A stretch of DNA of 64,000 nt from Bacillales bacterium UBA784. Lineage in GTDB: Bacteria > Bacillota_I > Bacilli_A > RFN20 > CAG-288. A program made the translations under genes and the position numbers. The notes under the pieces are model-generated. The model did no database searches. It was not told where the DNA came from and was given only the letters and a program-made list of their open reading frames with translations. Of the stretch, positions 19,313 to 41,918 are shown piece by piece; the stretch's first letter is position 1; the number at the start of each line of letters is the position of its first letter. Location of the stretch: NCBI GenBank assembly GCA_002297045.1, contig DBJE01000003.1, positions 65,537-129,536 of the forward strand, given 5' to 3'.

Positions 19313-19337
19313 AAAGACCACAGGGAGGTATAAACAC

Positions 19338-19622: not shown

Positions 19623-19647
19623 TAGCAATAGGTAAAGGAGATTAGCT

Positions 19648-20097
19648 ATGGCTGGAATGAATCGTGTCGTCTTAGTCGGAAGAATGGTCCGTGACCCGGA
19701 AAGGAAACGGACAAACAGCGGTGCGTCGGTGACTTCGTTCACCATCGCAGTGGATAACCCTGCGAAGACCGGGGGAGAGCGTTCGACAAGCTTCATCCCA
19801 TGCACCTGCTGGAGCAAGACTGCTGAAAATGTCGCCAAATACTGTTCCAAGGGTTCCTTGGTCGGTGTCGACGGCAGACTGAATCAGCGCAGCTACGAAG
19901 ACCGGAACAAGCAGAAACGTTCGGTCATCGAAGTGATTGCCGAGTCGGTTCAGTTCCTTGAGCGGAAAGGTGCCTCCGAAGGTGCCTCTCAGACGGACTT
20001 AGCCGGCGCTCCGAGTGCTTCTAATGAAGCTCCGGACACCAACAGCAATGCTGCCCATGAAGGAATCGATTCTTCGGACGACGATCTTCCGTTCTAG
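19648..20097 (+). CDS. ssb: single-stranded DNA-binding protein
   Basis: OB fold (MNRVVLVGRMVRDPE), acidic C-terminal tip DDDLPF. Confidence 0.95.
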   Translation: MAGMNRVVLVGRMVRDPERKRTNSGASVTSFTIAVDNPAKTGGERSTSFIPCTCWSKTAENVAKYCSKGSLVGVDGRLNQRSYEDRNKQKRSVIEVIAESVQFLERKGASEGASQTDLAGAPSASNEAPDTNSNAAHEGIDSSDDDLPF

Positions 20098-24878: not shown

Positions 24879-27800
24879 TTATTCGACTTGGATTTCTTTC
24901 TCCTTGGCCCTGAGAAGAGAGAGTAGGAAAAGACGGATGTTCTCTTTTTTTGTGCCAAAGAGCTTTTCGACGACATGCTGGTAGACATGGAGCTGGTCTT
25001 CATAGGCGGGATCATCGATTTCCTTTGTCTTATAGTCAACGATGTAATAGGTCCCTTCATAGAGGAAGAGAAGATCGATAGAGCCCTGCCTTTCTTCCTC
25101 TTCGCTTAGGTCATAGCTTAGCTCCTGCCGATAGGAAGAAGCCTTTTTTGCCTTCTGCCTTAACGGAGTAGAGAAGACTTTATTGATGGCATCCTTCCTC
25201 TTTTTGTCGCTAAGGAAGGATAAGTCCGGATTTTTCAGATTGATGCCCTGCCTGATTTCATGGAGTCTTGTTCCAAAGTCAAGCAGACGGTTTTCCCTTC
25301 TTTCGTCTTGGGTCAGTTTCTTGGAAGCACGGATTCTCTTCTTTTCCTCAAAGCCGAGGTCATCGTCGTTTAAGGTTCCGCTTTCCTTGCCGGGGATAGG
25401 ATAGAGGAATTCGTCTTGTTTCCCTTTCCCAGAACACTTGTTGTCTTTTACTGAGTCATAGATGGCATAGGGGATCTCCTCATCATCGAGATAATAGTGG
25501 CTTCTTGTCACATATTCGATTCTATTTGACGGATTGTTTTCAGTCCTGATGTTGACAAGGGAAAGAAGGAAGGCTTTATTGATTCTTTTCAGTCTATCTT
25601 TTTTATTCTTGATGTTCTTCCTTCCTAGCTTAAGGCAGTCACCTTCCTTTAGTCCATCGAGAATGTCACGGAGGAAAGCTTCTCTGCCATCCTTGTTCCT
25701 CTTTTTCCTTTGTTCCTCAAAGGATGCGGATGCGGAATCCTCGTCTTCATCGCTGCCCTGATCTTCATCGCTTTCCTCCTCATCCTCATCCCTTGTAGGG
25801 GTAAGAGAATCAAGATAATCGTTCAGCTGATTGAAGGTGGTTAAGTCTTTCTTCAGATAATGGAAGGCAAACAGGGCACTGATTTGGTCAAGAGTAGGGT
25901 TCGATTCAAGGAATCTGTTCCGGTATTGGTTACCTAAGACCTCCCTGATTCCCTCCCTTTGTTCTTCATAGAGACTGCTATAGTACGGAAGAAGAACCTC
26001 GTTTTTAAAGCGGTCATATAATGCCTGATTTTCCCCTTTTAGATTGCTGATAGGGAAGGAGAGAGAGGCAAGGTCTTTTTTCCGCTCTTCCAGTGCATCC
26101 TTCCTCTCTTTGTTGATCAGAAGAGGGTTCCTTTCTTTGATGTGTGGGAGCCTATTCCTCCTATATTGGGCGTTTTCCTTTTTCTTATCCGTGGAATCCT
26201 TTTCCCCGTCTCCGACAAAGATGAGATTGTTCTCGGCACGGGTTAAGGCGACATAGAAGAGACGGACGTGTTCGTCTCTCTCTTCTTTCTTTAAATCTTC
26301 CCTCTTATACCTTTTATAGTTGAAGGGATAGATATCCTTATCCGGGAAGGAGAGAAGATCCCCGTCTCGATTGTACTTTGGATTAATCCGGTAATCGGGA
26401 AGGAGAATTCCGTATTTCAGGGAGAAGTCATAGTCCGGCTTTGTCCTCTGATTTACTTTTGTCCTCTTGTTTTGGTAAATCGGCCTATAGAGGATATTCC
26501 TTTCAAGACCCTTAGAACCATGGATAGTCCTTAAATTGACGGCATCCTCGTTCCTAACGGAAGACTTATCGAGAAGCTCGACTTTGTACTTGTTCCTGTT
26601 CTGCCTTAAGGAGAGGAAGCCATCCCTTCCTTCTCCCCTCTCTTCCTGGTTTTTAATCCTTGCCTGCCTGGATTCAAGTTTTGCCAAGGAAACGGAGACA
26701 TTGCCGAGCGTATAGAGCTTATCGATGATGGAGAAGGAGGAGAGCCTATTGGTGAAGATCAGGGAGAAAGGATTATCTTGGTTATCCTGGATGAACTGTT
26801 TCCTCTTTGAAAAAAGAGGATCCTTTAGGACTAAGTCAAGAGTCCCCTGCGGCTTATCGTTGCTCTTGCCATAGGCAAGAATCGGGAAGAGCGTATCATC
26901 GGAATAGTTCCTGATATAACTTCTTGCCACAGAGGCAAAAAGATGTTTGACCTGGCAGGTTGGGTTCTTTCCCCTAAGATAGGCCATTAAAGAGACAAGC
27001 GACTGAACGACAATCACCGGTTCGACCTTGGAAAGAGCATCCTCGGAGATGGAATTCAGCGGAATGTTTCTTTTCTGGAAAACTTCCTGGAAAGAGGAAA
27101 AACTGGATTTCGTTCGGCAGAGGATTCCAAAGTCGGAGTATCTTACCTTGCGGAAAGAGGCCCTGTCCCGGTCATAGATCTGGTAGCCTTCCTTCCTTTT
27201 CTTCTCGATATCGTCAGCGATGGCATTGATTTCCCATTCTCTGCAGTTTTTAGAGTTCTTTGCCCCGTCATAGTCTTCCCGGATAGAAATAATCCGGGAA
27301 ATTCCAAAGGACTTATTCTTCCTCTCCTTGTCCTTGTAAAGGTCGACACCATTATCATAGCTTAACTGCTCACTTTCATCCCTGTAGTCGATTCCGCCAT
27401 GGTCGAGAGTCCTGTACTTTTCAAAGATGGCGTTAATCTGATGGAGAAGGCGGGGCTGGGAACGGTAGTTCTTGTTCCTGGCAATGACTTCTCCGTTCTC
27501 CGGATGGTCGAGATAGTCCTTCTGACGTTTACGGAAGAGCTCGACCTTGGAATTACGGAACCCATAGATGGACTGCTTGGCATCGCCGACACAAAAGAGG
27601 TGCGATCTTGTTCCGTCATCCTTCTTCTGCCTAAGGGAAGAGAGGAACAGTTCCTGGGCATCGTTGGTATCCTGGTATTCATCCACCCTGATGTAGGTGA
27701 AACGGTTACGGATTTCTTTTGCCGCCTTTTCGTATTTTTTATCGGTCCTTAGCCTAAGAGAGAGTCTTCCGATGTCGGCAAAGGTGAAGACGTTGCTTGT

Positions 27801-28922
27801 CTTTTTGTAGTCCGAGATCCGTTTTTCAAGATCCTGGAGCCTAAAAAGGAGGAAATGGATTGCTTTAGACTGTTCCTTGGCGTTTTTCCTGTCTGTATCG
27901 ACATCTCCATAATAGGGAACCAGCCTAGGATCTGAGCCTCCTAGAATTTGTTTCCTTCGTTCAAATCCCCTTCCTTCCTTTTTGATGGCAAATAGGTCTT
28001 CATGGTCTTTGGTAAAGCTTGAAAGAGCGGAAAGAAAGTCATCCCCTTCCTTCTTCCTTAGCTTTAGGTAGGCCTCATACCTTTCCTGCTCTTTCTCATT
28101 TTTAAACGGAAGCTGGTCATAAGGAAGAGTAAAATAGCCTGGATTCTTCCTCCTTGCATTGGCAAGTCGGACGGGGACTAGTCCCTTGTCTTCGTTAAAG
28201 CCACTATAGAAATCGGAGAGAAGGAAAGCGAACTTCAGTTCATCGGCAATCTTCTTCTTCGTCTTCCGGATGTACTCCTTTTTAAAGCCGTTGAGGACTT
28301 TGTCGGAGAGAAAACTATCTTCATAGTCCGAAAAGAATCTTTTTTTCTCCTCTTCGGTAAGGGATGCCCTTTGATCGTCTAAATCGAGAAGAATGGCTCT
28401 TAGGGCTGAGTCGTTCTGCCTAGTCAGGGAATGGATGAGGAAGAAGAGGGAATCCTTTTTCCTCCTGTCCTGATAGTATTCCGTTAGCCTCTCGTCCAAG
28501 ATGACCTGCTTTTTTGTTTCCCTCACGACATCATCGGCAATAGTGATCTTCGGAGAGATGCCAAGCCTTGAGGAATAGGTGGAGACAAGGTACTGGGAGA
28601 AGGAATCGAAGGTCTGAACATGGCAGGAGAGCCTCTCGTCACTTAGTTTTTTGTAGCGTGTTCTTTCTTTTTCATTCAGATTTGGATCATTTTCCGCTTT
28701 CTTAAAGCGGGCAACGATTCTTTCCTTCCTTTCATGGGCGGCATTGTTGGTAAACGTCCTGACAAGCAATTCACTCGGCTTGACTTCTCCTTTGTCAATT
28801 AAGGAGAAGACACGCTCCGTGAGAGTCTTCGTTTTTCCTGATCCCGCACCGGCGGAGATTAGGATATTTTTATTGGATGGAGCAGAGACAGCCTTTGCCT
28901 GTTCGGTATTGAAACTAGCCAT
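24879..28922 (-). CDS. addA: AddA/RexA helicase-nuclease subunit (UvrD-like SF1 helicase plus RecB-type nuclease)
   Basis: Walker A SAGAGSGKTKTL, I-AGG-VDEYQDTN, NYRS, TIHGSKGLE, C-terminal GSIDLLF...YIVDYKT nuclease motif. Start at the ATG at 28922 (MASFNTEQ), 9 nt after AAGGAG. Only one internal ATG in about 1350 codons. Confidence 0.85.
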   Translation of the reverse strand: MASFNTEQAKAVSAPSNKNILISAGAGSGKTKTLTERVFSLIDKGEVKPSELLVRTFTNNAAHERKERIVARFKKAENDPNLNEKERTRYKKLSDERLSCHVQTFDSFSQYLVSTYSSRLGISPKITIADDVVRETKKQVILDERLTEYYQDRRKKDSLFFLIHSLTRQNDSALRAILLDLDDQRASLTEEEKKRFFSDYEDSFLSDKVLNGFKKEYIRKTKKKIADELKFAFLLSDFYSGFNEDKGLVPVRLANARRKNPGYFTLPYDQLPFKNEKEQERYEAYLKLRKKEGDDFLSALSSFTKDHEDLFAIKKEGRGFERRKQILGGSDPRLVPYYGDVDTDRKNAKEQSKAIHFLLFRLQDLEKRISDYKKTSNVFTFADIGRLSLRLRTDKKYEKAAKEIRNRFTYIRVDEYQDTNDAQELFLSSLRQKKDDGTRSHLFCVGDAKQSIYGFRNSKVELFRKRQKDYLDHPENGEVIARNKNYRSQPRLLHQINAIFEKYRTLDHGGIDYRDESEQLSYDNGVDLYKDKERKNKSFGISRIISIREDYDGAKNSKNCREWEINAIADDIEKKRKEGYQIYDRDRASFRKVRYSDFGILCRTKSSFSSFQEVFQKRNIPLNSISEDALSKVEPVIVVQSLVSLMAYLRGKNPTCQVKHLFASVARSYIRNYSDDTLFPILAYGKSNDKPQGTLDLVLKDPLFSKRKQFIQDNQDNPFSLIFTNRLSSFSIIDKLYTLGNVSVSLAKLESRQARIKNQEERGEGRDGFLSLRQNRNKYKVELLDKSSVRNEDAVNLRTIHGSKGLERNILYRPIYQNKRTKVNQRTKPDYDFSLKYGILLPDYRINPKYNRDGDLLSFPDKDIYPFNYKRYKREDLKKEERDEHVRLFYVALTRAENNLIFVGDGEKDSTDKKKENAQYRRNRLPHIKERNPLLINKERKDALEERKKDLASLSFPISNLKGENQALYDRFKNEVLLPYYSSLYEEQREGIREVLGNQYRNRFLESNPTLDQISALFAFHYLKKDLTTFNQLNDYLDSLTPTRDEDEEESDEDQGSDEDEDSASASFEEQRKKRNKDGREAFLRDILDGLKEGDCLKLGRKNIKNKKDRLKRINKAFLLSLVNIRTENNPSNRIEYVTRSHYYLDDEEIPYAIYDSVKDNKCSGKGKQDEFLYPIPGKESGTLNDDDLGFEEKKRIRASKKLTQDERRENRLLDFGTRLHEIRQGINLKNPDLSFLSDKKRKDAINKVFSTPLRQKAKKASSYRQELSYDLSEEEERQGSIDLLFLYEGTYYIVDYKTKEIDDPAYEDQLHVYQHVVEKLFGTKKENIRLFLLSLLRAKEKEIQVE

Positions 28923-31554
28923 TCTTCTTTTCTCCTTTTCCTTCCTTATTTTCTTTTTTCTTCTTCCTCTTTTTCCGCTCGGTTTCGACATTGTCTATTT
29001 TCTTCTTATAGTCTAGGGCATCGTTGATTTTGTGGAAACAGACATCCTTGTAATTGCAGAGACGGCAAATGAGATTGTCCGTAGTGAAGGAAGTGAGAGG
29101 ACTAGAGGTCGGCTGGATAGGGAATTCCCCTTTCTCAAGGTGATGGATGATTGATAGGGCAGAGTTTACCGAATCCTGCCTTACCTGCTTCCTACTTATC
29201 TTCCTGTTCGTTCTGTCTTTCCTTAAGGTCGGATCAGCCTCTTTCTCATCCTTAGCGAAAGTGGCGACAGGGGCAAACATCAGGCTCTGGTTAAAGCGGA
29301 TGTCCCCTTTCTTATTCTTGTACTGAATGGCATCAGTCCTTGTTCCTTCCGTGTCGAAGAACTTTGTCCTGGATTTAAGATAGTCCTCATCCTCAAGGAC
29401 TAGTCCCTCTAGCTTGACCTTTGTACTAAGATCTGCCTCTGTCCTTGTCTTTTCTTTTTTCTTCGAAAGGGCGAACCTGCCTTTCGGGGACTTATCGTAG
29501 ATATGCTCAATCGCAAATCCGCCGAAGGTCGCCTTAAGATTCGGCCTATAGGGAATAGAGTCCTGCTTTTTTGCTACGGCCTCTTCCTTCTTCTGCTCGA
29601 TGGCATAGGCATAAAGAGGAAGCTGGATAGACCGTCCGAAATAGGTTTCCTTCGGAATAAAGGATTCTGCCCCTGTCTTATAATCGACAATCGTATAGAA
29701 ATGACGTCCTTCCCTTTCACTGAAGATCCTCTTATCGATATAACCGGAAAAGGGATAGGTCTTGCCATGATCGCTTAAGGTAAATTCAATCTTCCTTTCG
29801 GCATCGTTGTCGTTGACCCTTAAGGAAATATTTTCTTTTACCCTCTTACGGACTTCGCCGGCTATCGGCTTAAGCCACTCTTTGATGTTCTCCCTCGTCC
29901 TCTCCCTCTGCTTATCGAATTTCTGTCCGCGTTTCTCCCTGTCTTCCCTAAGGGACTTCTTTCCCCGTTCAAAAGCCTCATCGAAGGAATAGTCCTTATG
30001 GTTGATGGTCTCAAATACACTGTGGATCCTCGTTCCGCGGAAACGGCTGAAGTAGTCCTGAATCTGATCGGGAATCCTAGCCTCCCTATAATACTTGAAC
30101 GGACAGAGAATATAGGATTCAAGATTGGTGACGGAGAACTTCTCTGGGAGTGGGAAGATATTCTCTTTTAGTCCCTTAAAGGAGTGATCATATCCGTTAA
30201 AGACGATACTTTCTCCCTCTTTTGTGTTAAGTCTGTACTTTCCAAAACGGAACTGACTATCTCTCTGCCTTGCAAGATAAGCCTTCCTGCTTTCACTGGT
30301 ATAGACCCCTTCCTTGTTGTAGTCTTCTGTTTCACAAAGCTGAGGTAAGAGGACATCCTTATGTGCCTTCATATACTTCTTCTCTTCTTCCTTCCTTTCG
30401 TTGAAGAACTGGGAAGAGAAAAGGTTATCGTTTAGATGCTGCTTGACCCGGGAAAGAAGAACGATGTTCCTATAGGAGAGATAGTTCTTTTTCTTCCGGC
30501 GGTCAAGATTGGTTGTCACATAGCTTGGATTGAAGGAAATCTTGACCAGTTCGTCATCGGTAAGGACATTGTTGTCCTTACTCTCAAGATAGAAACGTCC
30601 AAAGAGGAAGTCGGTCACATAGACAATCTGACCAGGCCGGAAAAGGAACTTATCGCTTGCCCTTACCCCTCTTTTTGAAGTAAAACCTTTCCTTTTATAG
30701 GAAGAGATGATCTCTAGTAGACAGGAGAAGGCAAAAGAGAATCCCTGCTTCTCTTCTACCTCTTTAAGGGAATATTTCTCAATCCTTTGATTCAGGCTCT
30801 TCCTGTTAGGTTTGACCCTTTCTTCCTCAGTGAAGGAAAAGTCTTTCGTTTTATAGATACTATCAAGTTTGTCCTTCACTCCCTCTTCGGCAAGGAAAGA
30901 GGAGCTTGTTTCTTTAATGACCGGTATCGAGAAAAGATTTCCGATTCCGGAAAGATAAAAGACGTCCTCATCCCCTTTCACATGGATAAGGATATCCGAT
31001 TTCCTTTTCCCTGTCTTATCTTCCAGGATTCTTTTCCGGATATCGGAAAAGACATACCTGAACTGATGGAACTTGTCAGAGAAGAGAATGGTCTTTGGAT
31101 GATTAAGAAGGGTATACCGGTTTTCAAGATGGAAGGACTCGATATCTAAATCCTTGAAAGGGATGTTAAGCCGCTTAAGAAAGCCATGGACGACAAGGTC
31201 TTCCTGCCTTTCAAAGAGATTGACCTGATAAGAGGATATCCTTGCCTTGCCAAACGGTTTCTCTCTTATCCTTCCTTGCTGCTGAAGTTCATCATGCCTT
31301 TTTTTCAGTTTTTCGTTTTTCCGGTAGTCAGAGTGGATAAGTAGATCAAGATAGTCGTTTGCTTTCTGGTAGCTGATGCCCTGTTTCCTAAGATAGGGGA
31401 CTGCATTAGAAGAGATTTCATCGGCTACATGATTAAACAAATCATCAATCGACCAGATTGTAATTTGCTTGTTCCTATCCTTGCCTAAGTGCTCAAAGAG
31501 AAAAGGAAGATAATCCTTATCAGCAATTACAAGCCTGCCTTTGTTATTATCCAT
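28915..31554 (-). CDS. addB: AddB/RexB subunit (inactive helicase-like plus PD-(D/E)xK nuclease with Cys cluster)
   Basis: Upstream partner of addA with overlapping ends. GYIDKRIF...YTIVDYKTG nuclease motif. Cys at LCPFKYY and CRLCNYKDVC (Fe-S-type cluster). Start chosen at the ATG at 31554, 7 nt after GGAGA (31560 possible). Confidence 0.8.
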   Translation of the reverse strand: MDNNKGRLVIADKDYLPFLFEHLGKDRNKQITIWSIDDLFNHVADEISSNAVPYLRKQGISYQKANDYLDLLIHSDYRKNEKLKKRHDELQQQGRIREKPFGKARISSYQVNLFERQEDLVVHGFLKRLNIPFKDLDIESFHLENRYTLLNHPKTILFSDKFHQFRYVFSDIRKRILEDKTGKRKSDILIHVKGDEDVFYLSGIGNLFSIPVIKETSSSFLAEEGVKDKLDSIYKTKDFSFTEEERVKPNRKSLNQRIEKYSLKEVEEKQGFSFAFSCLLEIISSYKRKGFTSKRGVRASDKFLFRPGQIVYVTDFLFGRFYLESKDNNVLTDDELVKISFNPSYVTTNLDRRKKKNYLSYRNIVLLSRVKQHLNDNLFSSQFFNERKEEEKKYMKAHKDVLLPQLCETEDYNKEGVYTSESRKAYLARQRDSQFRFGKYRLNTKEGESIVFNGYDHSFKGLKENIFPLPEKFSVTNLESYILCPFKYYREARIPDQIQDYFSRFRGTRIHSVFETINHKDYSFDEAFERGKKSLREDREKRGQKFDKQRERTRENIKEWLKPIAGEVRKRVKENISLRVNDNDAERKIEFTLSDHGKTYPFSGYIDKRIFSEREGRHFYTIVDYKTGAESFIPKETYFGRSIQLPLYAYAIEQKKEEAVAKKQDSIPYRPNLKATFGGFAIEHIYDKSPKGRFALSKKKEKTRTEADLSTKVKLEGLVLEDEDYLKSRTKFFDTEGTRTDAIQYKNKKGDIRFNQSLMFAPVATFAKDEKEADPTLRKDRTNRKISRKQVRQDSVNSALSIIHHLEKGEFPIQPTSSPLTSFTTDNLICRLCNYKDVCFHKINDALDYKKKIDNVETERKKRKKKKENKEGKGEKKNG

Positions 31555-31740
31555 ATTCATTCTCCTTTCAGAATTATAACATTTAGGAGAGGAACTTTTA
31601 GCTTGCCATAACCTGAACGGCAATACATGAATACCAAAACTTGACTGGGACTATCCTTTTTTGACTATTGCTTTCCTGGTTCCCTGTGAAATTACAGGAG
31701 TTTTTCGGTTATGGGTGTGTTGATATGAATTTTGCGACTT

Positions 31741-32658
31741 CTAAGCATTCTTCTTTGAATTCTGACTCAGTTGCATAATCGTCAGTGAAGTCTGATTAAA
31801 CATATCCTCAAGTTCCTTAAGGAGCGTATTTCGTCGGTTGGCGTTCGAAAGCAGTCTGCTCAAATTGTTCTTTATGTAATACTGGAATGCATCTCTTATC
31901 TTGAAGCCATACTTATTCCTGATGTCGATAACCTCATCACTCAACTTATGAAGCTCTGGATAAGCGTTTATCCTTGCCGGAACTAATGTGCTTATAGGCT
32001 GATCATGGTCCAACGAAATTTGTTTCACATGTTTCACAAGCCTTGGGAAAAACCCAGTGGAGGAATGTGTGCTGTCAAAAGTCTCCGTATATACTTGTTC
32101 TAAAATTTCGGACTCGGATGTGGGTGCCGTCAGGATAAAAACATCACCATTGTCCATAATGTAGAGCTTTTTAATTTCTGACAGAGTCCGATAAGTTTTC
32201 GGACTTGGGCCGATTAGAAACTTAATTCTGTTCACCAAATCATCCATTGCCTTTTTAAAATTTTTGTCACCCTTAAAGGCTTTGAAGATTATTCTCATTG
32301 GCAAACAATAATTATTATTGGAATAGAGTCGATCTTGCGTTCTTAAACGAGAAGAAAATATTCTTTTCAGCTGTTTCTGGTCGAACACGGCTTTTATGGC
32401 AGATCCGCTAATCCTAGCACCGCCCACGGGCGAAGGAGAGGATGTGGTATTTGAAGACAGATAACGCAGATATCGTGCATAGCAGTTATATGCGGGAATC
32501 CAATGTCTTATGCCGCTTGGGGTCGGTGTGGCTGATAAGGAAGAGTTCAAATATGACAGATATGATTTGGCTGTGCCTACACTTAACCCTTCGACCTTGG
32601 TTACATAGTCTTCAAAACTCCTGTAGGAACTTGTTTTGCTCACCTTAATGTTTGGCAT
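31741..32658 (-). CDS. hypothetical protein (305 aa), island gene
   Basis: Long ORF with RBS AAAGGAGG 8 nt upstream. No family recognised. Confidence 0.5.
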   Translation of the reverse strand: MPNIKVSKTSSYRSFEDYVTKVEGLSVGTAKSYLSYLNSSLSATPTPSGIRHWIPAYNCYARYLRYLSSNTTSSPSPVGGARISGSAIKAVFDQKQLKRIFSSRLRTQDRLYSNNNYCLPMRIIFKAFKGDKNFKKAMDDLVNRIKFLIGPSPKTYRTLSEIKKLYIMDNGDVFILTAPTSESEILEQVYTETFDSTHSSTGFFPRLVKHVKQISLDHDQPISTLVPARINAYPELHKLSDEVIDIRNKYGFKIRDAFQYYIKNNLSRLLSNANRRNTLLKELEDMFNQTSLTIMQLSQNSKKNA

Positions 32659-32752
32659 GGTTTATTTGCCTCCTTTTCAATTTGTTTTCAAAAAATATCA
32701 AGAGAATTTCCTTTAGATTTCAACTTTTATTCGTTTTGATGATAAAAGGAAA

Positions 32753-33112
32753 TTAGAAAATGATGTTTTCAATACGATAGAGAGTGTTTCCGAGTCCGAC
32801 GGTTAACACTGCTTGGCGTCCATCTTTAAGTTTGATTAAATATTTTGTACCATAAAAACTAGTTGTAACATTATCTTTATGCTCAATATCAATAACTCCC
32901 ATGGCTAAAACACTAGCTGAATCAACCATGTCGTGAGTAATCTTAATTTCTTCTTTACTAGGAAGGGTGAAAATCATAGCCGATTCACCTTCATCGCTTC
33001 CAAAATTAATTGTTGTACCAACCGGAAAATCGTGACTGCTTACATAACCTGCACTTGTCATAGCTTTAAGGGCACCAGCCCCTGCCTGTTTTAATTTGTC
33101 AAGAAAACCCAT
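32753..33112 (-). CDS. hypothetical small protein (119 aa), island gene
   Basis: ORF with perfect RBS AGGAGG (MGFLDKLKQAGAG...). AT-rich. No family recognised. Confidence 0.55.
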   Translation of the reverse strand: MGFLDKLKQAGAGALKAMTSAGYVSSHDFPVGTTINFGSDEGESAMIFTLPSKEEIKITHDMVDSASVLAMGVIDIEHKDNVTTSFYGTKYLIKLKDGRQAVLTVGLGNTLYRIENIIF

Positions 33113-33144
33113 AATTACTTACCTCCTATTGGTTTGACTTCTCT

Positions 33145-33172
33145 GTTTTACCCCCCCCCCGCAAAAAGTCAA
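33145..33172 (-). promoter_or_regulatory. candidate phase-variable promoter: TTGACT, 16-nt spacer containing G10, TAAAAC
   Basis: Minus strand: TTGACT-TTTTGC-GGGGGGGGGG-TAAAAC, about 30 nt upstream of the AGGAGG RBS of the 119-aa gene. Confidence 0.45.
33151..33160. repeat. homopolymeric C10/G10 tract
   Basis: Ten consecutive C on the plus strand, counted directly. Confidence 0.95.
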
Positions 33173-33425
33173 GAAATGTCTTGAAATTAAATTTGCAAGC
33201 CAAAAATATCGAACAAAATTCGTAGAAAATGTTCATTTATATCCGTGCAACTAAAATTTATGGAAGAATAAAAAAACGAAGAAAAATATCAGACTATAAG
33301 ACTATCTTCTTTTTTCTTGCTGATTCAAAGTATCAACATTCCCATGTTTAGCTCAGGAACTTCCGAAAACAGTCATAGTCTTTTTTAACTGTCGTACGGA
33401 GAAAGATGAGTATACTCTTCATTCT

Positions 33426-33455
33426 CCTTGATGCAGGATTGCATCTGCATCAAGG
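33426..33455. repeat. perfect 11-bp inverted repeat (CCTTGATGCAG-n8-CTGCATCAAGG)
   Basis: Read directly. Lies in a 650-bp non-coding gap and is not followed by a T run. Confidence 0.8.
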
Positions 33456-33764
33456 AAAGCATGAAGATACTTGATAATGAATTACTTTGCGGCCATGTAT
33501 GGTCAGAGCACAAATGTATGAGGATGCAGCATGCTACCACCTACTGCTTTCGCTTCTGTCTATTCAACAAGTCTATTAGGACCCTCGGTGAGTCAACCAT
33601 AGAACATCTAGAAGTGTCCTGCCTTCCCCTTTAGAAATGGATACAGGATGAGTTATTGAAATCTAGTTGAAAATATTTTTTAAAGCGTTCACTTCAAAGA
33701 TGGTTCACTGATTATAACATCCAAGTGGTGCATTAACACTTCAGTTTCTTCTTTAGAGATACAT

Positions 33765-36629
33765 TTAGTCTTTAAACTTCAGTAAGCCCCTTGTAAATCC
33801 GTTTGGATTGGTGAACTTCTTCTCTCCGGCGGCAAAACGGACAGTTATATATTTGCCTTTCTTGTCTATATTTATGATTTCGCCGTCCCCAAACTTAGGA
33901 TTGACGACCTTGGCACCGACGACAATCTTAGAGAAGTCTATGTTCATGGCTTTGGCATAGTCGTTGACCTGTTTTAGAATGGGCTTGATTGTCTCTTTGG
34001 CTTTGTTATCGGCGGGGCCTGTCTTGTCTGCTTCGGTTGAAATAAGTTCCTCCGAGTTCTTCCTGGTTTCCTGCTGGTTATAGAAGAGTTTCTCGTATTC
34101 TTCTCTTCTGATTACTGTATCCCAGCCACCGACATCCTCGCCCTTATGCCTTTCCAGACCAGTATAAGAAAGAGAGGAATCCTCGTATCTCTTGAATTTG
34201 AAGATGGCGTCGTTCATCAAGGAAGCATTGAAAACACCCAAAGAGCAGAGAAGCTCGAAGTCTTTGACATCCAGTCCGGTAACCTTCTTAAACAGGTCAG
34301 GCTCAAGCTGGGTGATGACATCCTTAAGGCATCTTTCCCGGTAGTCGGTGAGGTACCTGAAGACAGGGATTCTGGTCGCGAACTTGATCAGCTTCTCCTG
34401 GATTTCCTTTCTCTTGGACTTGTATTCCTTCTCTTCTTCGGTAAGTTCTTTCTTCTGCTTCGGAGTGAGCTTGTCATCCCCGTCCTTCTTTGTGTTCTTG
34501 ACGTGTTCAGATTTGTTGATGATGGTCTCAATATCAGAGTTCAAAGAACGGAACCCTTCAATGTTCATCAAGGCATCCAAAGCCTCTTTGTTGGTCAGAA
34601 GCTTGTTTAATGTGTCATTGTCCACATTGACCAAAAGAGCCGATTCCCATCTTCTGGCAAGCAAAGTCGCAGAAGTCCCGGCCATTGCGATATCAAGGAC
34701 ATCCTGGGCATTAATCTGCTTCCTGGTCGAGCCATCATAGGCGAGAACCGGAAGGAAGCTGATGAATTCCGCAACCTTCTTTTCAGGATTGTTTCCGTCC
34801 TGATTAAGACGGCAGGAATAGTCCGAAATCTCTCTCAGGGCCCGGTCTAATGCAAAATCAAAGACATAGCATTCCTGCTTAAGAATCGTCTCCGTTCCGT
34901 CCGGATTCTTGATCGTCCAGGGGGACTGGACACGGAATGCAGACTGGAAATAGGTTTCCGGTGATTTCAGGTTCCGGAGCCTAAAGATGCCTGTCCAAGG
35001 CCGGATAGTGACGCCAGTGGTCAGCTTTCCGCAGGAGAGAGTAATCGTCTTAGTCTCCAAAGGAGACTTTCCGTCCTTCTCCCTAGAATCGATGACTGGC
35101 TTTACGGCATCAAGACCAATCCCCGCTTTCGGTCCTGCACAGAGGTTGATGGTGTAGTCATGATAGAACGTGTTCTGCCGTTCCCTGAGAAGGTTATACC
35201 TTGCTTCGCAGGAAGCGACATTCGGCAGGAACCAAAGAGTGTGGGAGAGAACATTTAAAAGACGGACATCCGAGAAGGGCATCGGAGGACGCTTGTCCTG
35301 CCCAAGTTTAAGATCGTCGATGCTGGCAGACAGGTACTGGCCTCTAATCAGATCGAGCCACTTCTGGACTTCGTTTTTGTACTTGAAAGTAGCATTCGCC
35401 CCTCTTCCTTCCGCAGAGAAGAAGACATTGAGGTCGAACTCGTTGAATTCGCCATCCATGGCGACCTGTTTGATGCTGTCTGGAATCTGATAGGTCATCA
35501 AGACCATTCTCGGCAAGGAGAGATAGGGATTGTTCGATCCCTTCCAGTTCGCCTTCGCTCTCTGTTCATCGGAATATGTCCAGTTATAAATCTGATCTTC
35601 GATGAACTCCCCGCTGTTGATTGCTCTAAAAGGAGTTCCGGAAAGGAAGAGATAATAATTCGTAGTGATAGGAAGGAATGTTTCGTTGTAGGCATTGCCC
35701 GCCTCTTCATCCTGGTATTTCTCGACGTCAAAGTCGGCATCTGCCTCTTCGTCTGGATTCTCGAAGAGCTTTTTTGCATTCTCACGCCAGGCACCAAAGT
35801 GGTATTCGTCAAAGATGACCCTGTCCCAGTTCTCTGTATGGATGAATTCGTTTTTCGCCTTTATTCCGCCGTTCTCGTTGGTCCCGAGAAGGTTCTGGAA
35901 GGAGCCGAAGACGACAATCGGCTTTGACTTGTCACACTCCGCAAATTCCTTATCCAGACGGGTACTAGAGCCCTTGGCGTCGTTGTCCGAGACAAACTGC
36001 CATCCATCGAAATCGATGTGGGTAAGCAGGTCCTCTTTCCAGGCCGATTCGACTGCAGGTTTGAAAGTGAGGATAAGGATTCTCTTCAGACCCATTCTCT
36101 TGGCAAGCTCATAGGAGGCGAAAGTCTTCCCAAAGCGCATCTTGCAGTTCCAAAGGAACTTCGGCGCCTTATTAGGCTCTTCCTCTTTGGCCTTCTTGAA
36201 GTATTCTTCCGTGTATTGGACTGCTCTGACCTGTTCAGGTCTCCTCTTGAATGTCTCTGTTCTTCCGCGTGATGTGATGATACCGTCTCTGACTTCCAAT
36301 ATGGCTTTCTTCACATCGTCCAAGGAGCATTTGAACCATTCGTTCTTGTCTTCCCCGTTGTAGAGCTGTTTGATTCCTTCTCTCTTTAAAACGGCATGGA
36401 TATCATGGTCCATGAAGCAGGTTCCGTCGGAACGCATGGCGGAAGTGACAAAGATTGTCTTATGCTTCAGACCGCTAGTATGTAACTGCTCGTTGATTCT
36501 GTCTTCATAATCCTCACGATCTGTGTATCCGATTTTCAGATAGCCATCATGAGATGGGACATCTGGAAGAGTGTAGACATATATGGTCGGTTTGACCTCT
36601 GGTCTTTGCTTAAAAAAATCCGTTGCCAT
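33765..36629 (-). CDS. restriction-type enzyme: N-terminal GIY-YIG/T5orf172 nuclease, SF2 (type III Res-like) helicase, C-terminal UvrD/PcrA-type Tudor-like tail
   Basis: IYVYTLPD...GYLKIGYT...R..EQ (GIY-YIG-like), motif I MRFGKTF, motif II VIFDEYHFG, motif III LSGTPF, QSAFRVQ. C-terminal VGAKVVNPKFGDGEIINID...VRF. Three nt downstream of the MTase gene. Confidence 0.8.
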   Translation of the reverse strand: MATDFFKQRPEVKPTIYVYTLPDVPSHDGYLKIGYTDREDYEDRINEQLHTSGLKHKTIFVTSAMRSDGTCFMDHDIHAVLKREGIKQLYNGEDKNEWFKCSLDDVKKAILEVRDGIITSRGRTETFKRRPEQVRAVQYTEEYFKKAKEEEPNKAPKFLWNCKMRFGKTFASYELAKRMGLKRILILTFKPAVESAWKEDLLTHIDFDGWQFVSDNDAKGSSTRLDKEFAECDKSKPIVVFGSFQNLLGTNENGGIKAKNEFIHTENWDRVIFDEYHFGAWRENAKKLFENPDEEADADFDVEKYQDEEAGNAYNETFLPITTNYYLFLSGTPFRAINSGEFIEDQIYNWTYSDEQRAKANWKGSNNPYLSLPRMVLMTYQIPDSIKQVAMDGEFNEFDLNVFFSAEGRGANATFKYKNEVQKWLDLIRGQYLSASIDDLKLGQDKRPPMPFSDVRLLNVLSHTLWFLPNVASCEARYNLLRERQNTFYHDYTINLCAGPKAGIGLDAVKPVIDSREKDGKSPLETKTITLSCGKLTTGVTIRPWTGIFRLRNLKSPETYFQSAFRVQSPWTIKNPDGTETILKQECYVFDFALDRALREISDYSCRLNQDGNNPEKKVAEFISFLPVLAYDGSTRKQINAQDVLDIAMAGTSATLLARRWESALLVNVDNDTLNKLLTNKEALDALMNIEGFRSLNSDIETIINKSEHVKNTKKDGDDKLTPKQKKELTEEEKEYKSKRKEIQEKLIKFATRIPVFRYLTDYRERCLKDVITQLEPDLFKKVTGLDVKDFELLCSLGVFNASLMNDAIFKFKRYEDSSLSYTGLERHKGEDVGGWDTVIRREEYEKLFYNQQETRKNSEELISTEADKTGPADNKAKETIKPILKQVNDYAKAMNIDFSKIVVGAKVVNPKFGDGEIINIDKKGKYITVRFAAGEKKFTNPNGFTRGLLKFKD

Positions 36630-36632
36630 CGA

Positions 36633-38177
36633 TTAGTTCTCCGAATGGGGCCAAACGGTTGATTCTATGTAATTAATCTCGTCATCTGTCAAGCCGAAAA
36701 AACTATACAACAGAGAATCATTCCATTCTTGGCTAAATGGAACTTTTGGAATAAAATCATAGCATCCTCGGACAGTGTCTTGAGAGACCTTTTTCAGAGA
36801 TAAGAGAAAATGGAAAAACTTTGTTTCAATATAACTTTTTACGTTTTTGGCTTCTTTTAAACTTTTAAATGGCCCACAAATTAAATATGTTCCGGAGCAG
36901 CAAGTATTAGGCTCAGCAATGATTGGTTTTACTTTATCTGTTTTGACATCTGCACTACCAACTGAGCGTGGCAAAAGAATTTTATATTTATCGATGTATT
37001 CAGCTCCTCTAGTAATTTCTGAACGTTTGATCCATCCTCTGTTTTTCATTACATATGCAAAGATGTCTGTACTAGAAGTTTTGTTTTCAGATAAAGAATT
37101 GAAAGTGGATTTGGTAGTGAAAGGCCATAGAGAACCAACAAGCTCAGAAAATGGGCTTAATCCTTTTGTACGGACCTGGTGTAATATGTCAATTGCTTCA
37201 TTATCTCTTATAATTGTGGTGCACCCAGATTCTAATAAATATCTTGATTCCTTTGATAATATTTTATTGCCAGAGTGGTTATAAAAAGTACATTTTCCTT
37301 TGTAGTTTTTATCCCATAAGAAGTAGCAAACGCCACCTTTAATTTCTACACCTGAAAAACAATCTTCAGCTTTCGGAAAATCATGAATTTCTTTTATATT
37401 ATTGGACGATGTCATATATTCTCTGAAAGTCTTTATGCATGGGAAGCCACCAGCATACCATCTAGCAGGAATAATCATGGCAACATAATTTGGTTGCAGT
37501 TTAAACGCTGCTTCAACGAATTTGTCATATAAAGGGGTTGCCTGGGCTTGCCCTCCTCCTGTACTTAATTGATATGGCGGATTACTTATTATGACGTCAA
37601 ACTTCATCTTAAATACCTCCTCCACGTTCATTCCGTGAATGAACTCATAAGCATGCGTTTCTAAATCGGATTCTCTGTCATATTCGTTTTTTGATGCGCC
37701 ACAATAAATACAAGAAGCGTGGCTTTTTCCTGATGAATCATAAACCTCTTTTTCCCAGGTGTGATTTGTTCTTTTAAACCGGATATTTCCATCCGTATTT
37801 TCGAAATGGGTAATGGAGAATTCGCTGCTTGCATTTTTGGAGCAGTAGACACTACGTCTGGAAAGAAGACTCGTGAGTTCCGTTATGGCAATTCCGAAAA
37901 GCTGCTTATGGAAGATATGGTCCACTCTCTCCTGAAGATCAGGAAACTGGTTCTCAAGTCCCTTTAAAAGTCTCTTGGCAATCTCCCGCAGGAAGACCCC
38001 TGTCTTGCAGGCTGGGTCAAGGAATGTGGTATCCGGATTCTCGAATAGTTCTTGTGGAAGCATATCGAGCATCTGATTGACGACATCCGGTGAGGTGAAG
38101 ACTTCATCGCTTGAAAGGTTGGCTAGACAGCTTAGCACATCCGGGTTATAGACCTTGTTGAATAAATCATCACTCAT
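36633..38177 (-). CDS. Eco57I-type (gamma-class) N6-adenine DNA methyltransferase
   Basis: NPDVLSCLANLSSDEVFTSPDVVNQMLDML (motif X), FLDPACKTGVFL (motif I), VIISNPPYQ (motif IV). AT-rich, and every Arg codon I spot-checked was AGA or CGN. Confidence 0.9.
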   Translation of the reverse strand: MSDDLFNKVYNPDVLSCLANLSSDEVFTSPDVVNQMLDMLPQELFENPDTTFLDPACKTGVFLREIAKRLLKGLENQFPDLQERVDHIFHKQLFGIAITELTSLLSRRSVYCSKNASSEFSITHFENTDGNIRFKRTNHTWEKEVYDSSGKSHASCIYCGASKNEYDRESDLETHAYEFIHGMNVEEVFKMKFDVIISNPPYQLSTGGGQAQATPLYDKFVEAAFKLQPNYVAMIIPARWYAGGFPCIKTFREYMTSSNNIKEIHDFPKAEDCFSGVEIKGGVCYFLWDKNYKGKCTFYNHSGNKILSKESRYLLESGCTTIIRDNEAIDILHQVRTKGLSPFSELVGSLWPFTTKSTFNSLSENKTSSTDIFAYVMKNRGWIKRSEITRGAEYIDKYKILLPRSVGSADVKTDKVKPIIAEPNTCCSGTYLICGPFKSLKEAKNVKSYIETKFFHFLLSLKKVSQDTVRGCYDFIPKVPFSQEWNDSLLYSFFGLTDDEINYIESTVWPHSEN

Positions 38178-38865
38178 AATCTTTTAACCTCTTGTAGTTC
38201 ATTACACACCGGTGGACAAACTTTCCTTCTCCGTTGTTGTTATTGTCGAAGAGGGATTCTTGCCCATTTAGGTCCCTCTCAGGATTTTCGTTCTGCTTAA
38301 GAATCTCATCGAACGTGTATTCGCTTCTGGATAGCTGAGGTCCGGTCACGAATCCCCATTCGCTGAAGACAATCGGTTTGTCTATGTCATTTCCTTTTTC
38401 GTCGACTTCATGCAACGTCAGAGCATTCCCGCAGACGATGTTTTTAGAAAGAATGAAACGGATGGAGTCCCGCCTATCCTCGCCGCATTCCTTTTTGCAG
38501 ACTGATTTGTATTGTTTGTCCCAGATTTTGAAAAGACGTTCCCGGCATGCAATCACGTTGTCCATCCTGATGTCTACGCCATATAGGCTGGATACGGCAA
38601 GAAGGGAATTCTTCTCGAAATCCATTACGCTTCGGCGGTATTTCTTCTTCACGACTGCCAGTTTTCTATCGAGAATCTCGGCAAGGAAGTTCCCGTCACC
38701 ACACGCAGGCTCCAAAAATCTTGAATCAATTCTCTGGGTTTCGTCGTTGACGAGGTCACACATCGCCTTGACTTCACGCTCATTGGTGAAGACCTCACCA
38801 TGGTCTACGACACGCTTTCTGGACTTGATCTGCCTGTTCGTTTTCTTTTTCGTTTCCTTAGGCAT
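38170..38865 (-). CDS. truncated methyltransferase-like protein (SAM-binding half only, no NPPY)
   Basis: GEVFTNEREVKAM (motif X) and FLEPACGDGNFL (motif I) and YGVDI are present, but the protein ends without a (D/N)PPY catalytic motif. Translationally coupled on both sides. Confidence 0.6.
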   Translation of the reverse strand: MPKETKKKTNRQIKSRKRVVDHGEVFTNEREVKAMCDLVNDETQRIDSRFLEPACGDGNFLAEILDRKLAVVKKKYRRSVMDFEKNSLLAVSSLYGVDIRMDNVIACRERLFKIWDKQYKSVCKKECGEDRRDSIRFILSKNIVCGNALTLHEVDEKGNDIDKPIVFSEWGFVTGPQLSRSEYTFDEILKQNENPERDLNGQESLFDNNNNGEGKFVHRCVMNYKRLKDYE

Positions 38866-39056
38866 CACTCGTCCACCTCGATCTTGTGTTTCTTGAAATA
38901 AGGAGCGAGCTTTCTCTTTGCTTTGATGGTCGGCTTATGGGAGCCTCTTTCCCAGCGGTTGACGGTCTGAAAGGAAACACCCAAAAGATCGGCTAGTTCC
39001 GTCTGCGACAATATCAAAGTGGTTCTCAGCTTCTTGACAGCTTCTGCATAGGTCAT
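38865..39056 (-). CDS. XRE-family helix-turn-helix protein (candidate controller of the R-M operon)
   Basis: LSQTELADLLGVSFQTVNRWERG HTH. Start at the ATG at 39056, 8 nt after AGGAG. Stop overlaps the next start (TGATG). Confidence 0.8.
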   Translation of the reverse strand: MTYAEAVKKLRTTLILSQTELADLLGVSFQTVNRWERGSHKPTIKAKRKLAPYFKKHKIEVDE

Positions 39057-39081
39057 AGGTCCGCTCCTGTTCTGTTTCAAA

Positions 39082-39110
39082 AGTATACCATTTTCATCCC
39101 ATTCTGTCGA
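39082..39110 (-). promoter_or_regulatory. promoter of the HTH/MTase/Res operon
   Basis: Minus strand: TCGACA, 17-nt spacer ending in TGG, then TATACT (extended -10). Confidence 0.5.
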
Positions 39111-39141
39111 TGAACCATAGAGAGGAATCTAGACTTCTCTA

Positions 39142-41019
39142 TTAGTTCTTGACCAACTGTTTAAGATATTCGCGCAGATTATCATCCTCCGCATAAATGA
39201 ATGTTCCTTTTACGCCGCGTGTAAGAAGGACTTTATAGGTGTTTCGGATCAGTCTCTCGGCTAAGGCATCATCGGCTGTTCTGATTCCGCTTGCGGAATC
39301 GCTATGGGCGTTCCTTTCCTTATGGAATTCGATTTTTCCTGTTCTCTTGTTGTAAGTAAGATCCTTTCCGATGATGACCCCCGCATATTCGACTTCCAGC
39401 CCTTGGATAGTATGAATACAGAATACGTTCCTCTTCTGCGTGTCATCCAAAATGGCCGCTCTATCCGCCTTCTTGATGTTCCAGCGTAGTTTTGTTCCGT
39501 CCTCGTATTCGAAATCGTATTTCTCGGAATCGTATTGGCTGACCCATTCATGGGTGTAGCCGGCCATCAGTCTCATCTGATGGTTGGAATTCCAAAGCTT
39601 ATTCCATTTCTCCATCCTGTCTTTCCTGGAACCCATGATTTCCACTTTGTATTTCATGCCTTTGAGGGATACGAAATCATTCGTATAACCTAGGAAATGA
39701 TTGACGAAGGCGATGTACTGCTCTCCGCCCACGCATCTGAACTGGGAGGAGAGAATCATTCTGCTATCTTCGATGACCTTCGAACCGTATTTTTCGGCAT
39801 ATTCCTTTATCTGCTTGATTGACAAATCATCGGAAGCGGTGACAACCTGATCCTCATCGATCAGAAACACGTTGACTCTTGACGCATTGAAGAGCTTGTC
39901 GATGACATCAACGCTTTTCTGCACGCCCCATCCGAACTTCCATTTCAGCCTTCGGTGGGCTTCATCGACGATAATGCAGTCAAAATCATAGGCCGCCGAC
40001 TTTGCAAAGGCGGCAGGAGTCTTGAAGAGTTCCTTGATTGCCTTCTTCGTGAAATCCTTGGTCAGGATATCGCTGAAATAAGTACGCGGAGTGAAGTTTG
40101 CGGTCACATAGCAGGCGTTGCGTCTTGGCCGTCCATCTTTTGGGTGGATGAGCTGGCCAAGCGCGTTGATGGCGACGATGGACTTGCCTGACCCCGGCCC
40201 TCCTTTTACGATGATGGTTCTTCTCTCTCCTTTTTCCAAAGCCTCCTGAACCTCGCTGACGATTTTGGAAACGGAATAGGACTGCTCGGCATCATAGGAG
40301 AAGAAGGGCTCGCCGTTGATGGCGTCTGCGACCATCTTGGAGAAGCCTTCGCTCGGTCTGATCTGGGAACTGTCGATTTCATAGAGCGTGTTGCGACTGT
40401 AGGGTTTCTTTATATATCTGGCGATGAATTCGCTGAGCTTCTTCTGATCGTCCTTTAAGAAAGCAGGTGCCTCACGCACTAAAGGATAGTCCTTTTCATT
40501 TTTCAGAAGGACTTCATATCCTTCCGGCATATTGTGGAGATACGAGCAGGCGTTCACTCCGACGTTGTTAGTATAGATATACTCGTTGAAATCCTTCCTG
40601 ATGTTGGCATAGTTCAGTGCCTGGTAGGAAGGATGCCAGTAATCGTCCACGCCATGTCCTCCATCGGTGACGACATAGTCTTTCAAGAAGGATCTTCTCA
40701 CCGAGCTCCATTGCTTGAGCTCGATAAGGATGACATTCTCTTTGTCTTTTTCGTCTCTTCCGAAAATGAGGAAGTCGACTCTCTGCTTTGTGTCGACAAG
40801 CTTATATTCGACACCGACGCCGGCTTCCTTTGGAATGGAACCATCCTCCAATGCTTCTGCCACTTTTGGAAGGGAGTGGATCCAGGAATTGTATTCGCTT
40901 ATTGATCCTCCACCGATATGGTGTGCCTTGAATCCATCCAAAAGCAACTTGCCGATGACAGGATTTGGTCCTTCACAGTTGCTTATGAAATTCCCTACAC
41001 TATCGCTATATAAAATCAT
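39142..41019 (-). CDS. DUF2075-family (Schlafen group-3-like) ATPase/helicase with N-terminal PD-(D/E)xK-like nuclease region
   Basis: N-terminal VDFLIFG...VILIELKQW nuclease-like core, Walker A KGGPGSGKS, Walker B CIIVDEAH, QFRC, C-terminal TIQGLEVEYAGVIIG and LLTRGVKG. RBS GGAGGGGG. Confidence 0.8.
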   Translation of the reverse strand: MILYSDSVGNFISNCEGPNPVIGKLLLDGFKAHHIGGGSISEYNSWIHSLPKVAEALEDGSIPKEAGVGVEYKLVDTKQRVDFLIFGRDEKDKENVILIELKQWSSVRRSFLKDYVVTDGGHGVDDYWHPSYQALNYANIRKDFNEYIYTNNVGVNACSYLHNMPEGYEVLLKNEKDYPLVREAPAFLKDDQKKLSEFIARYIKKPYSRNTLYEIDSSQIRPSEGFSKMVADAINGEPFFSYDAEQSYSVSKIVSEVQEALEKGERRTIIVKGGPGSGKSIVAINALGQLIHPKDGRPRRNACYVTANFTPRTYFSDILTKDFTKKAIKELFKTPAAFAKSAAYDFDCIIVDEAHRRLKWKFGWGVQKSVDVIDKLFNASRVNVFLIDEDQVVTASDDLSIKQIKEYAEKYGSKVIEDSRMILSSQFRCVGGEQYIAFVNHFLGYTNDFVSLKGMKYKVEIMGSRKDRMEKWNKLWNSNHQMRLMAGYTHEWVSQYDSEKYDFEYEDGTKLRWNIKKADRAAILDDTQKRNVFCIHTIQGLEVEYAGVIIGKDLTYNKRTGKIEFHKERNAHSDSASGIRTADDALAERLIRNTYKVLLTRGVKGTFIYAEDDNLREYLKQLVKN

Positions 41020-41617: not shown

Positions 41618-41676
41618 TGATTGAACTATAAACGAACTTCTGATTGAACTAATCATTGAACTAATGATTGAACTAA
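41618..41676 (+). repeat. iteron-like repeats: T(G/C)ATTGAACTA four times, three in 12-bp tandem phase
   Basis: Copies start at 41618, 41641, 41653 and 41665, in the AT-rich region at the right edge of the island. Confidence 0.75.
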
Positions 41677-41918
41677 TTAGATACTATGCGAAGACAAATC
41701 AGCCTATAGTATGAACTTTAAGAGCTGTCAATAGTAAAACCATCGATGGTCTTAAAAAAGCTGTTTTTGATGCAGCCAAGAGTGGTAGTGACATTGTCAG
41801 TAGCTATAATAGCAAAAGAGTTGCTTTTAGCCTATTATTTCAGTTTTGCCGATTTACGATAGCTTCTATCAGAAATTAACAATTTATTAATTTTTACTAA
41901 ACTTAGGTCTACAGGATA

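Follow-up and report, generated by a model that had tools for sequence, protein, structure and literature searches.

Does the length of a G homopolymer determine whether the two genes that follow it are expressed? An earlier reading of this DNA, made from the sequence alone, had placed a run of ten Gs between the two boxes of a promoter and proposed slipped-strand phase variation of two island genes. The analysis presented here covers the whole 64-kb stretch of DNA (the window) and relatives of the locus found in public assemblies. Direct reading of the minus strand returned exactly the promoter layout that had been described, together with the two open reading frames (ORFs), of 119 aa and 305 aa and separated by a gap of 94 nt. 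The locus comprises the following features:

33172-33167, minus strand: -35 box TTGACT, by direct reading, matching TTGACA at five of six positions
33166-33161, minus strand: non-repeat part of the spacer, TTTTGC, by direct reading
33160-33151, minus strand: G10 homopolymer (C10 on the plus strand), the hypermutable part of the spacer, by direct reading
33150-33145, minus strand: -10 box TAAAAC, with four of six matches and without the final T
33136..33140, minus strand: putative transcription start, about 7 nt past the -10 box, placed by standard sigma-70/sigma-A geometry only
33127-33122, minus strand: AGGAGG ribosome-binding site (RBS) of the 119-aa gene, separated from the -10 box by 17 nt and from the ATG by 9 nt
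32753-33112, minus strand: 119-aa gene (ORF), of a conserved small-protein family without a Pfam family
32694..32723, minus strand: promoter-like TTGAAA-18-GATATT between the two genes, from which the 305-aa gene might be transcribed separately, by consensus scan match only
32669..32674, minus strand: AGGAGG RBS of the 305-aa gene, by direct reading
31741-32658, minus strand: 305-aa gene, with a helical N-terminal domain like integrase SAM-like domains and a conserved C-terminal domain (ORF, family search, and AF2 model)

A G homopolymer between two putative promoter boxes

On the minus strand of the window, TTTTGC and G10 together make up a spacer of 16 nt between TTGACT and TAAAAC, and the ATG of the 119-aa ORF, at 33112, lies 32 nt past the -10 box. 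The gain of a single G was said to produce a 17-nt spacer, and this arithmetic is correct (16 + 1, that is, G11). The -10 box is the less canonical of the two, a weakness that the sequence-only reading had passed over, as TAAAAC does not have the conserved T at the last position, a trait common to all 12 of the 12 sequences carrying an identical 119-aa gene. Because of this missing T, a consensus promoter scan of the window made no call at the TTGACT-16-TAAAAC site, and the promoter may be weak here even at the best spacing. Terminator prediction on the minus strand found none in the 650-nt intergenic region between the gene of a 954-aa restriction-type enzyme and the tract, and some transcripts may read through from that upstream gene. 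The same intergenic region contains, upstream of the G-tract promoter, a perfect 11-bp inverted repeat (CCTTGATGCAG-8 nt-CTGCATCAAGG, 33426-33455, minus strand) without a T tail, which is overlapped by a sub-threshold Rfam match to psRNA2 (E = 0.016). Near the tract, no Rfam family reached its gathering score, and the intergenic region gave only two sub-threshold matches. Two other roles of the homopolymer were discarded: a single G10 run cannot supply the four G-tracts of a G-quadruplex, and the tract lies outside every ORF, which rules out a coding-frame switch.

The tract is exceptional in its surroundings. It is the sole run of at least seven G or C in the 64-kb window, the runner-up having a length of 6, and chance would provide about 0.04-0.14 runs of at least ten. 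Since a first-order model predicts about 7 runs of at least seven in the window and the tract is the only one observed, long G/C runs are otherwise depleted in this genome. With ten residues (33151-33160), it exceeds the length of about 7-8 nt or more that characterizes homopolymers prone to slippage.

Tract length in close and distant relatives

The same 119-aa protein, without a single residue changed, was read on 23 contigs of public assemblies. We compared the window with eleven distinct contigs, derived from different samples and assemblers and all carrying the identical 119-aa gene, across 640 nt upstream plus the gene itself (about 1 kb). These 12 sequences differ at about ten single-nucleotide columns and at one indel site, the tract, which is both the sole indel and the sole multi-allelic site over that span. 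Four alleles were found:

G10, spacer 16 nt: the window, L001, L002, L003, and L010
G9, spacer 15 nt: L005, L008, and L009
G8, spacer 14 nt: L006 and L007
G4AG8 (13 positions), spacer 19 nt: L004 and L024

Tract length, which the sequence-only reading had suggested comparing in related genomes, therefore varies within near-invariant flanks. The contigs that have the same tract allele also have linked SNPs in common (the G8 pair, the G9 trio, and the G4AG8 pair), and this co-segregation indicates that the alleles are real, heritable variants rather than assembly noise. Their distribution points to at least three length changes among strains that differ by well under 1%. Given that the alleles track SNP haplotypes, switching is too slow to randomize the majority allele between related strains, and this allele is stable enough to be inherited between them. 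The spacers of the window lineage bracket the 17-nt optimum, with 14, 15, and 16 nt below it and 19 nt above it. A second lineage, that of the homologue P0003, offers a similar picture: its three contigs are alike in their flanks bar one SNP and carry tracts of G9, G7, and G8.

In a neighbour-joining tree, the window protein (P0001) forms one clade with P0002, P0003, P0004, and P0019; the truncated P0039 was placed in this clade by a sequence motif and not by the tree. These five further lineages share 62-82% identity with the window protein and come from hosts of 25-52% GC. Their promoter regions read as follows:

P0002, 82% identity (L011): contig beginning inside a run of at least G9, followed by TAATCT, spacer not readable
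P0039, 80% identity (L031): TTGACA-AAGGTC-G7-T-TAAAAT, spacer 14 nt
P0003, 68% identity (L028, L029, and L030): TTGACT-TTTTTC-G9/G7/G8-TAAAAT, spacers 15, 13, and 14 nt
P0004, 68% identity (L032): TTGACA-AAATC-G3AG5-TAAAAT, spacer 14 nt
P0019, 62% identity (L033): TTGACA-GAC-G11-TAAATT, spacer 14 nt

A G tract is present in six of the six clade lineages, that of the window included, against none of the 11 loci outside the clade. Every clade locus readable on both sides (the window lineage and four others) has the same succession of -35 box, G tract, -10 box, short leader, and RBS. Outside the window lineage, the tract contains 7-11 G and is interrupted once (G3AG5), and a segment of 3-6 nt separates the -35 box from it. 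Four diverged lineages have CTTGAC[A/T] in the corresponding position, whereas the DNA that precedes it differs from lineage to lineage, as do the genomic contexts of the tract loci. At clade loci with both flanks, the top-scoring -35/-10 pair of the upstream 130 nt always encloses the tract (9-11 of 12 matches), and clade -10 boxes end 22-32 nt before the start codon, which leaves space only for a short leader and an RBS. In L028, TTGACT is preceded, at a distance of about 20 nt, by the end of a bidirectional terminator hairpin, and the upstream gene is divergent in L033; the promoter must therefore lie in the short segment containing the tract at both of them. In AT-rich hosts, a G9 run would be expected by chance only ~2e-4 to 9e-4 times per locus (25% and 30% GC loci). 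At none of the eleven outgroup loci does a run of five or more G or C precede the gene. Several of them (e.g., L013, L014, L017, and L020) have an ordinary spacer of 17 nt; TAAAAT is the -10 box in most of these, a TGn extension occurs in some, and the -10 box is about 60-85 nt from the start codon.

The repeat is hence retained at orthologous loci, including those of 25-30% GC hosts, as expected for selected mutability. The persistence of such an unstable run between conserved -35 and -10 boxes, through this degree of divergence, bears the signature of a selected contingency repeat. No assembly of any lineage has a 17-nt spacer, and the four other readable lineages stand at 13-15 nt; even the G11 tract of L033 is three Gs short of 17 nt. 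A -10 register located 3 nt further downstream, which gives 17 nt in L031 and L032, was rejected as inconsistent across lineages. The P0039 homologue of L031 (421-828) is a pseudogene with a TTG start and an in-frame TAA after about 58 codons; its G7 promoter with a 14-nt spacer would fit the decay of a silenced copy.

A probable promoter-spacer switch and its rivals

We consider it probable that the G tract is a contingency (simple-sequence-repeat) switch in the spacer of a sigma-A-type promoter. The length polymorphism and the conserved architecture both support the slipped-strand phase variation proposed initially. Slipped-strand mispairing at replication would add or remove Gs, as suggested by the alleles of 8, 9, 10, and 13 positions observed among near-identical strains, and each gain or loss would shift the distance between TTGACT and TAAAAC, arithmetically from 14 to 19 nt. 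RNA polymerase with sigma-A uses both boxes well only when they are about 16-18 nt apart, with an optimum at 17 nt, which in the window lineage would correspond to G11. The G8, G9, and G4AG8 alleles would then be off, the G10 allele of the window (16 nt) would have a low or intermediate ON state, and G11-G12, neither of which has been seen so far, would be high or fully ON. The state would be heritable yet reversible and would govern the 119-aa gene and probably also the 305-aa gene behind it. We infer these effects of length on transcription from established promoter biology and from precedent.

The closest precedent is the Treponema pallidum gene tp0126, encoding an OmpW homologue, which has a poly-G between the -35 and -10 boxes and, as relayed in a later article, is transcribed best at 17 nt (Giacani et al. 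2015, via PMC7864442). According to the same article, the number of Gs in its tract (7-11) differs from strain to strain and also within strains (PMC7864442). In both cases a G homopolymer separates the two boxes and its length sets the spacer. They differ in that tp0126 is an experimentally verified outer-membrane protein gene of a spirochaete pathogen, whereas here we deal with uncultivated gut Firmicutes, cytoplasmic-looking proteins, comparative evidence only, and a weaker -10 box. Homopolymers in promoter spacers were reportedly also described in Neisseria meningitidis, a poly-G for porA by van der Ende in 1995 and a poly-C for opc by Sarkari in 1994. Expression of porA and opc is graded (high, medium, none) over three adjacent tract lengths. 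As in porA, the homopolymer at our locus occupies the -35/-10 spacer, and the spacers of 15, 16, and 17 nt for G9, G10, and G11 are numerically identical. In contrast with Neisseria, a Gram-negative pathogen with surface antigens and many such loci per genome, the tract studied here is the sole long G/C tract in 64 kb and travels with one gene family across hosts. The poly-A promoter tract of the Mycoplasma hyorhinis vlp genes is said to act as an on/off switch by its length (Citti and Wise, 1995); it likewise lies in a promoter region, but it is a poly-A and serves a multigene lipoprotein family, unlike the G tract of this single-copy locus. Defence genes are frequent targets of phase variation and, as in phasevarions, the tract shares its island with a restriction-modification (R-M) system. 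Nevertheless, we rejected a phasevarion since the R-M genes (33765-38868) contain no G/C run of at least seven and no tandem repeat, and the tract, which is downstream of them, would instead control the two genes that follow it.

Alternative explanations of the same data have to be weighed against a switch. Homopolymers are error-prone, and two contigs (L011 and L030) begin at or beside the tract, so that poly-G read tails or homopolymer miscalls might be suspected, an artefact that the sequence-only reading had itself named as fatal to its proposal. This is effectively refuted, and we grant it a negligible probability: the tract is internal, 12 sequences that stem from different samples and assemblers agree in its unique flanks, and its alleles are at most 2-5 nt apart and linked to SNPs. 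The tract might also be hypermutable but devoid of any regulatory role, drifting in a 5' leader or in untranscribed DNA while transcription comes from R-M read-through or from a promoter further upstream. The imperfect -10 box, a spacing that would be non-functional in most alleles, and the lack of a predicted minus-strand terminator between the 954-aa gene and the tract would agree with this. Yet unselected runs of G7-G11 should not survive across a 62-82% range of protein identity and in genomes of 25-30% GC, nor would one expect CTTGAC and TAA..T to hold fixed positions on either side of the tract when the sequence preceding the -35 box changes from lineage to lineage. The hairpin directly upstream in L028 and the divergent gene of L033 are also difficult to reconcile with transcription from outside, and we regard drift without function as unlikely.

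Two further explanations accept a switch at this locus, past or present. It could be real but read by another sigma factor or regulator, with the last Gs and TAA forming a G-rich -10 box (GGGTAA or GGTAAAAT). The -10 boxes of the sigma-B type read GGGTAT, with spacers of 12-15 nt, and those of the sigma-F type GGHRARHT, a pattern that GGTAAAAT matches. The short distances (11-14 nt from CTTGAC) would then be functional instead of OFF, and spacers of 13-15 nt to TAAAAT dominate five lineages, an unexpected spacing if sigma-A ever made use of the promoter. By contrast, CTTGACA, the upstream box, comes close to a perfect sigma-A -35 and is unlike GTTTAA or GCATR, and it is mainly for this reason that we rate this possibility as low; the host range (25-52% GC, including Bacilli with a non-standard code) also makes a shared alternative sigma factor uncertain. 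Finally, an ancestral switch may have worked and its promoter may now be dead here, leaving a decaying, effectively locked-off remnant with genes heading for loss. The T to C change of the -10 box (TAAAAC), fixed in the lineage, is compatible with such a fate, as are the interrupted tracts G4AG8 (L004 and L024) and G3AG5 (L032) and the L031 homologue with its internal stop codon and 14-nt spacer. Against it, both ORFs of the window are intact and keep every invariant residue of their families, the 119-aa protein is identical in 23 contigs, and the uninterrupted G8-G10 alleles still vary in length, so that a dead promoter seems improbable too.

If the tract is indeed a sigma-A promoter-spacer switch, its usual state is probably OFF or low and not an even stochastic mix, because most of the assembled alleles across lineages give 13-15 nt, below the 16-18 nt range. 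Such a mostly-OFF pattern fits a costly product needed only rarely. The interrupted tract (G3AG5) of one lineage and the stop codon in the gene of another look like drift to permanent silence. This architecture is found with the gene clade in hosts ranging from 25% to 52% GC, and the promoter seems to move with its gene as a single unit. Extending this, it is possible, although we hold it doubtful, that the G-tract promoter represents a contingency cassette of old origin, which spreads horizontally and has been kept by selection through the history of the clade in commensal gut Firmicutes, across 25-52% GC and two genetic codes. It would gate an uncharacterized and probably costly module composed of the small beta-protein together with either zinc-ribbon/LRR_5 and SPFH (Band_7) proteins or, in the window, the 305-aa DNA-binding, nuclease-like protein in a defence island. 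In that case, non-pathogenic gut Firmicutes would possess a conserved contingency locus based on a simple repeat, and this locus would offer a way into a new envelope or defence system normally kept OFF.

The locus very probably belongs with promoter-spacer simple-repeat phase variation, as it presents the sequence-level features of this class: the tract, its place between conserved boxes, its variation between strains, and its retention. The mechanism is already known and would not surprise a specialist; the interest of the locus lies in the lineage-wide conservation of the switch with the gene, its occurrence in commensal uncultivated Firmicutes, and the uncharacterized module that it would gate. 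Simple-repeat phase variation is textbook knowledge for host-adapted pathogens, and most of the attention given to gut commensals has concerned invertible promoters and methylation switches; a search of the literature brought up no survey of promoter-repeat switches in gut Firmicutes. In this locus we have a clean example from uncultivated Firmicutes, supported by comparison, in which the switch is conserved together with its gene. It would mark the small-protein family and its partners as needed by cells only occasionally, and relating tract length to expression in existing metagenome/metatranscriptome pairs would be a simple functional assay.

The downstream genes and their island

The first gene behind the tract belongs to a family of small proteins (~115 aa) with 46 members of 52-100% identity and 21 invariant columns. 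Its AF2 model (mean pLDDT 68) has an N-terminal amphipathic helix and an all-beta body. The 119-aa protein gave nothing significant in Pfam, PADLOC, or PHROGs, its model had no match in the PDB at E <= 0.001, a tblastn search against plasmids and phages returned no match, and a scan of viral contigs found no relative. At most of the loci examined (L011, L012, L014, L015, L017-L019, L021, L028, L031, and L033), the gene of this family comes first in an operon, ahead of that of a small zinc-ribbon/LRR_5 (BspA-type) protein, which is often followed by an SPFH (Band_7_1)/SHOCT protein or by a zinc-ribbon membrane protein with Listeria-Bacteroides repeats; at a few loci the next gene encodes a zinc-ribbon protein without LRR_5. 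In other lineages the next gene begins 0-45 nt after the 119-aa homologue, so that the operon is the rule there. The conserved association of the family with these partners points to an uncharacterized module.

In the window, the second gene is the one encoding the 305-aa protein. Terminator prediction found none in the 94-nt gap between the two genes, and co-transcription is plausible. The 305-aa protein has only two close relatives, but an exhaustive search retrieved 96 distant ones. An integrase SAM-like DNA-binding domain (Phage_int_SAM_5) was detected at the N-terminus of 7 of the 33 aligned family members, and in the C-terminal domain R104, R110, D217, and N300 are invariant and H218 nearly so. 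The 305-aa protein itself gave nothing significant in Pfam, PADLOC, or PHROGs. Its AF2 model (pLDDT 88.8) had no match at E <= 0.001 in fold searches against the PDB and BFVD, and a profile search of PDB sequences produced only a marginal XerC-like N-terminal match (E = 0.25). From the motifs SLDHD...LTIM....NSxKN, together with a beta-beta-alpha arrangement of the modelled structure, we guess, with no support from any search, that the C-terminal domain might be a His-Me finger (HNH-like) nuclease. A relative with 39% identity adjoins a gene for a 1094-aa LRR_5 protein and one family member is fused to LRR_5; as LRR_5 neighbours or fusions occur for both, this theme joins the 119-aa and 305-aa genes.

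The 305-aa gene also varies among strains in other ways. In three of them (L005 from ~5300, L006 from ~4880, and L009 from ~4510, equivalent to 31741-31743 and downstream in the window) its stop codon is CAG instead of TAG, and the ORF reads through into a 39-nt tandem repeat, KQQNSQSQNSNAR, of up to three copies or more, inside which the contigs end. This repeat is a second variable-length element at the locus. In addition, the gene has two haplotype blocks (32230-32360 and ~32010-32050, residues 103-144 and 204-214), consisting of a substitution cluster and a 9-nt 'PMT' indel that are combined differently among strains, which suggests recombination between alleles.

The two genes had been described as island genes, and an island is indeed delimited by codon use and, partly, by GC content:

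31741..41019, minus strand: acquired defence island of six genes, including the 119-aa and 305-aa genes (codon use, partly GC, and domains)
28915-31623, minus strand: AddB, a core ORF of the AGG-coded host
24879-28991, minus strand: AddA, with 66 AGG and 3 ATG codons

It is inserted between ABC-transporter genes and addAB, and its other contents, according to Pfam, PADLOC, and PHROGs, are a Schlafen-like helicase, a methyltransferase fragment, an Eco57I-type methyltransferase, and a T5orf172/ResIII restriction-type helicase. Parts of it have a GC content of 38-42%. The ratio AGG/(AGG+ATG) is 0-0.5 in the island vs 0.67-1.0 in nearly all flanking or core ORFs, and in AddA AGG stands at classic or conserved Met positions. 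These data indicate that the host reads AGG as Met, which matches the AGG-to-Met clade of Bacilli, and standard translations of its core genes therefore show spurious Arg. This code has been described in uncultivated gut Bacilli from baboon and human faeces (Shulgina and Eddy 2021, PMC8629427). The window contains only one tRNA gene, a tRNA-Met(CAT).

Not all the island genes have been affected by this code to the same extent. Of 16 columns occupied by Met in standard-code homologues of the 954-aa restriction-type enzyme, 7 are AGG in the window; its gene has been partly recoded since its arrival. Five AGG codons occur in the 305-aa gene, none of them at an invariant Arg. The 119-aa gene has 0 AGG and 5 ATG, so that its reading is unaffected by the host code change, and the 514-aa methyltransferase gene has 0 AGG and 8 ATG; as neither contains AGG codons, a later arrival is suggested for these two un-recoded genes. 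The island is a natural case of genes passing horizontally from one genetic code into another, and the different degrees to which they have been recoded could serve as a residence-time clock.

Several other features of the island and the window deserve mention. The 232-aa ORF at 38170-38868 (minus strand), which corresponds to the N-terminal region of an MmeI-type methyltransferase, overlaps by 8 nt the start of the 514-aa Eco57I-type methyltransferase gene (36633-38177, minus strand), and the enzyme seems to be split into these two ORFs. At the left border of the island, an intergenic 12/24-nt tandem repeat, ATTGAACTAATC, is present in ~2.5-3 copies (41618-41677) and may be related to the insertion site. 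Elsewhere in the window, a low-GC stretch at 18000-19850 (38.8% at 18-19 kb), beside a 194-aa ORF (19266-19850) that has 0 AGG and 3 ATG, may be another foreign segment in this AGG-to-Met host.
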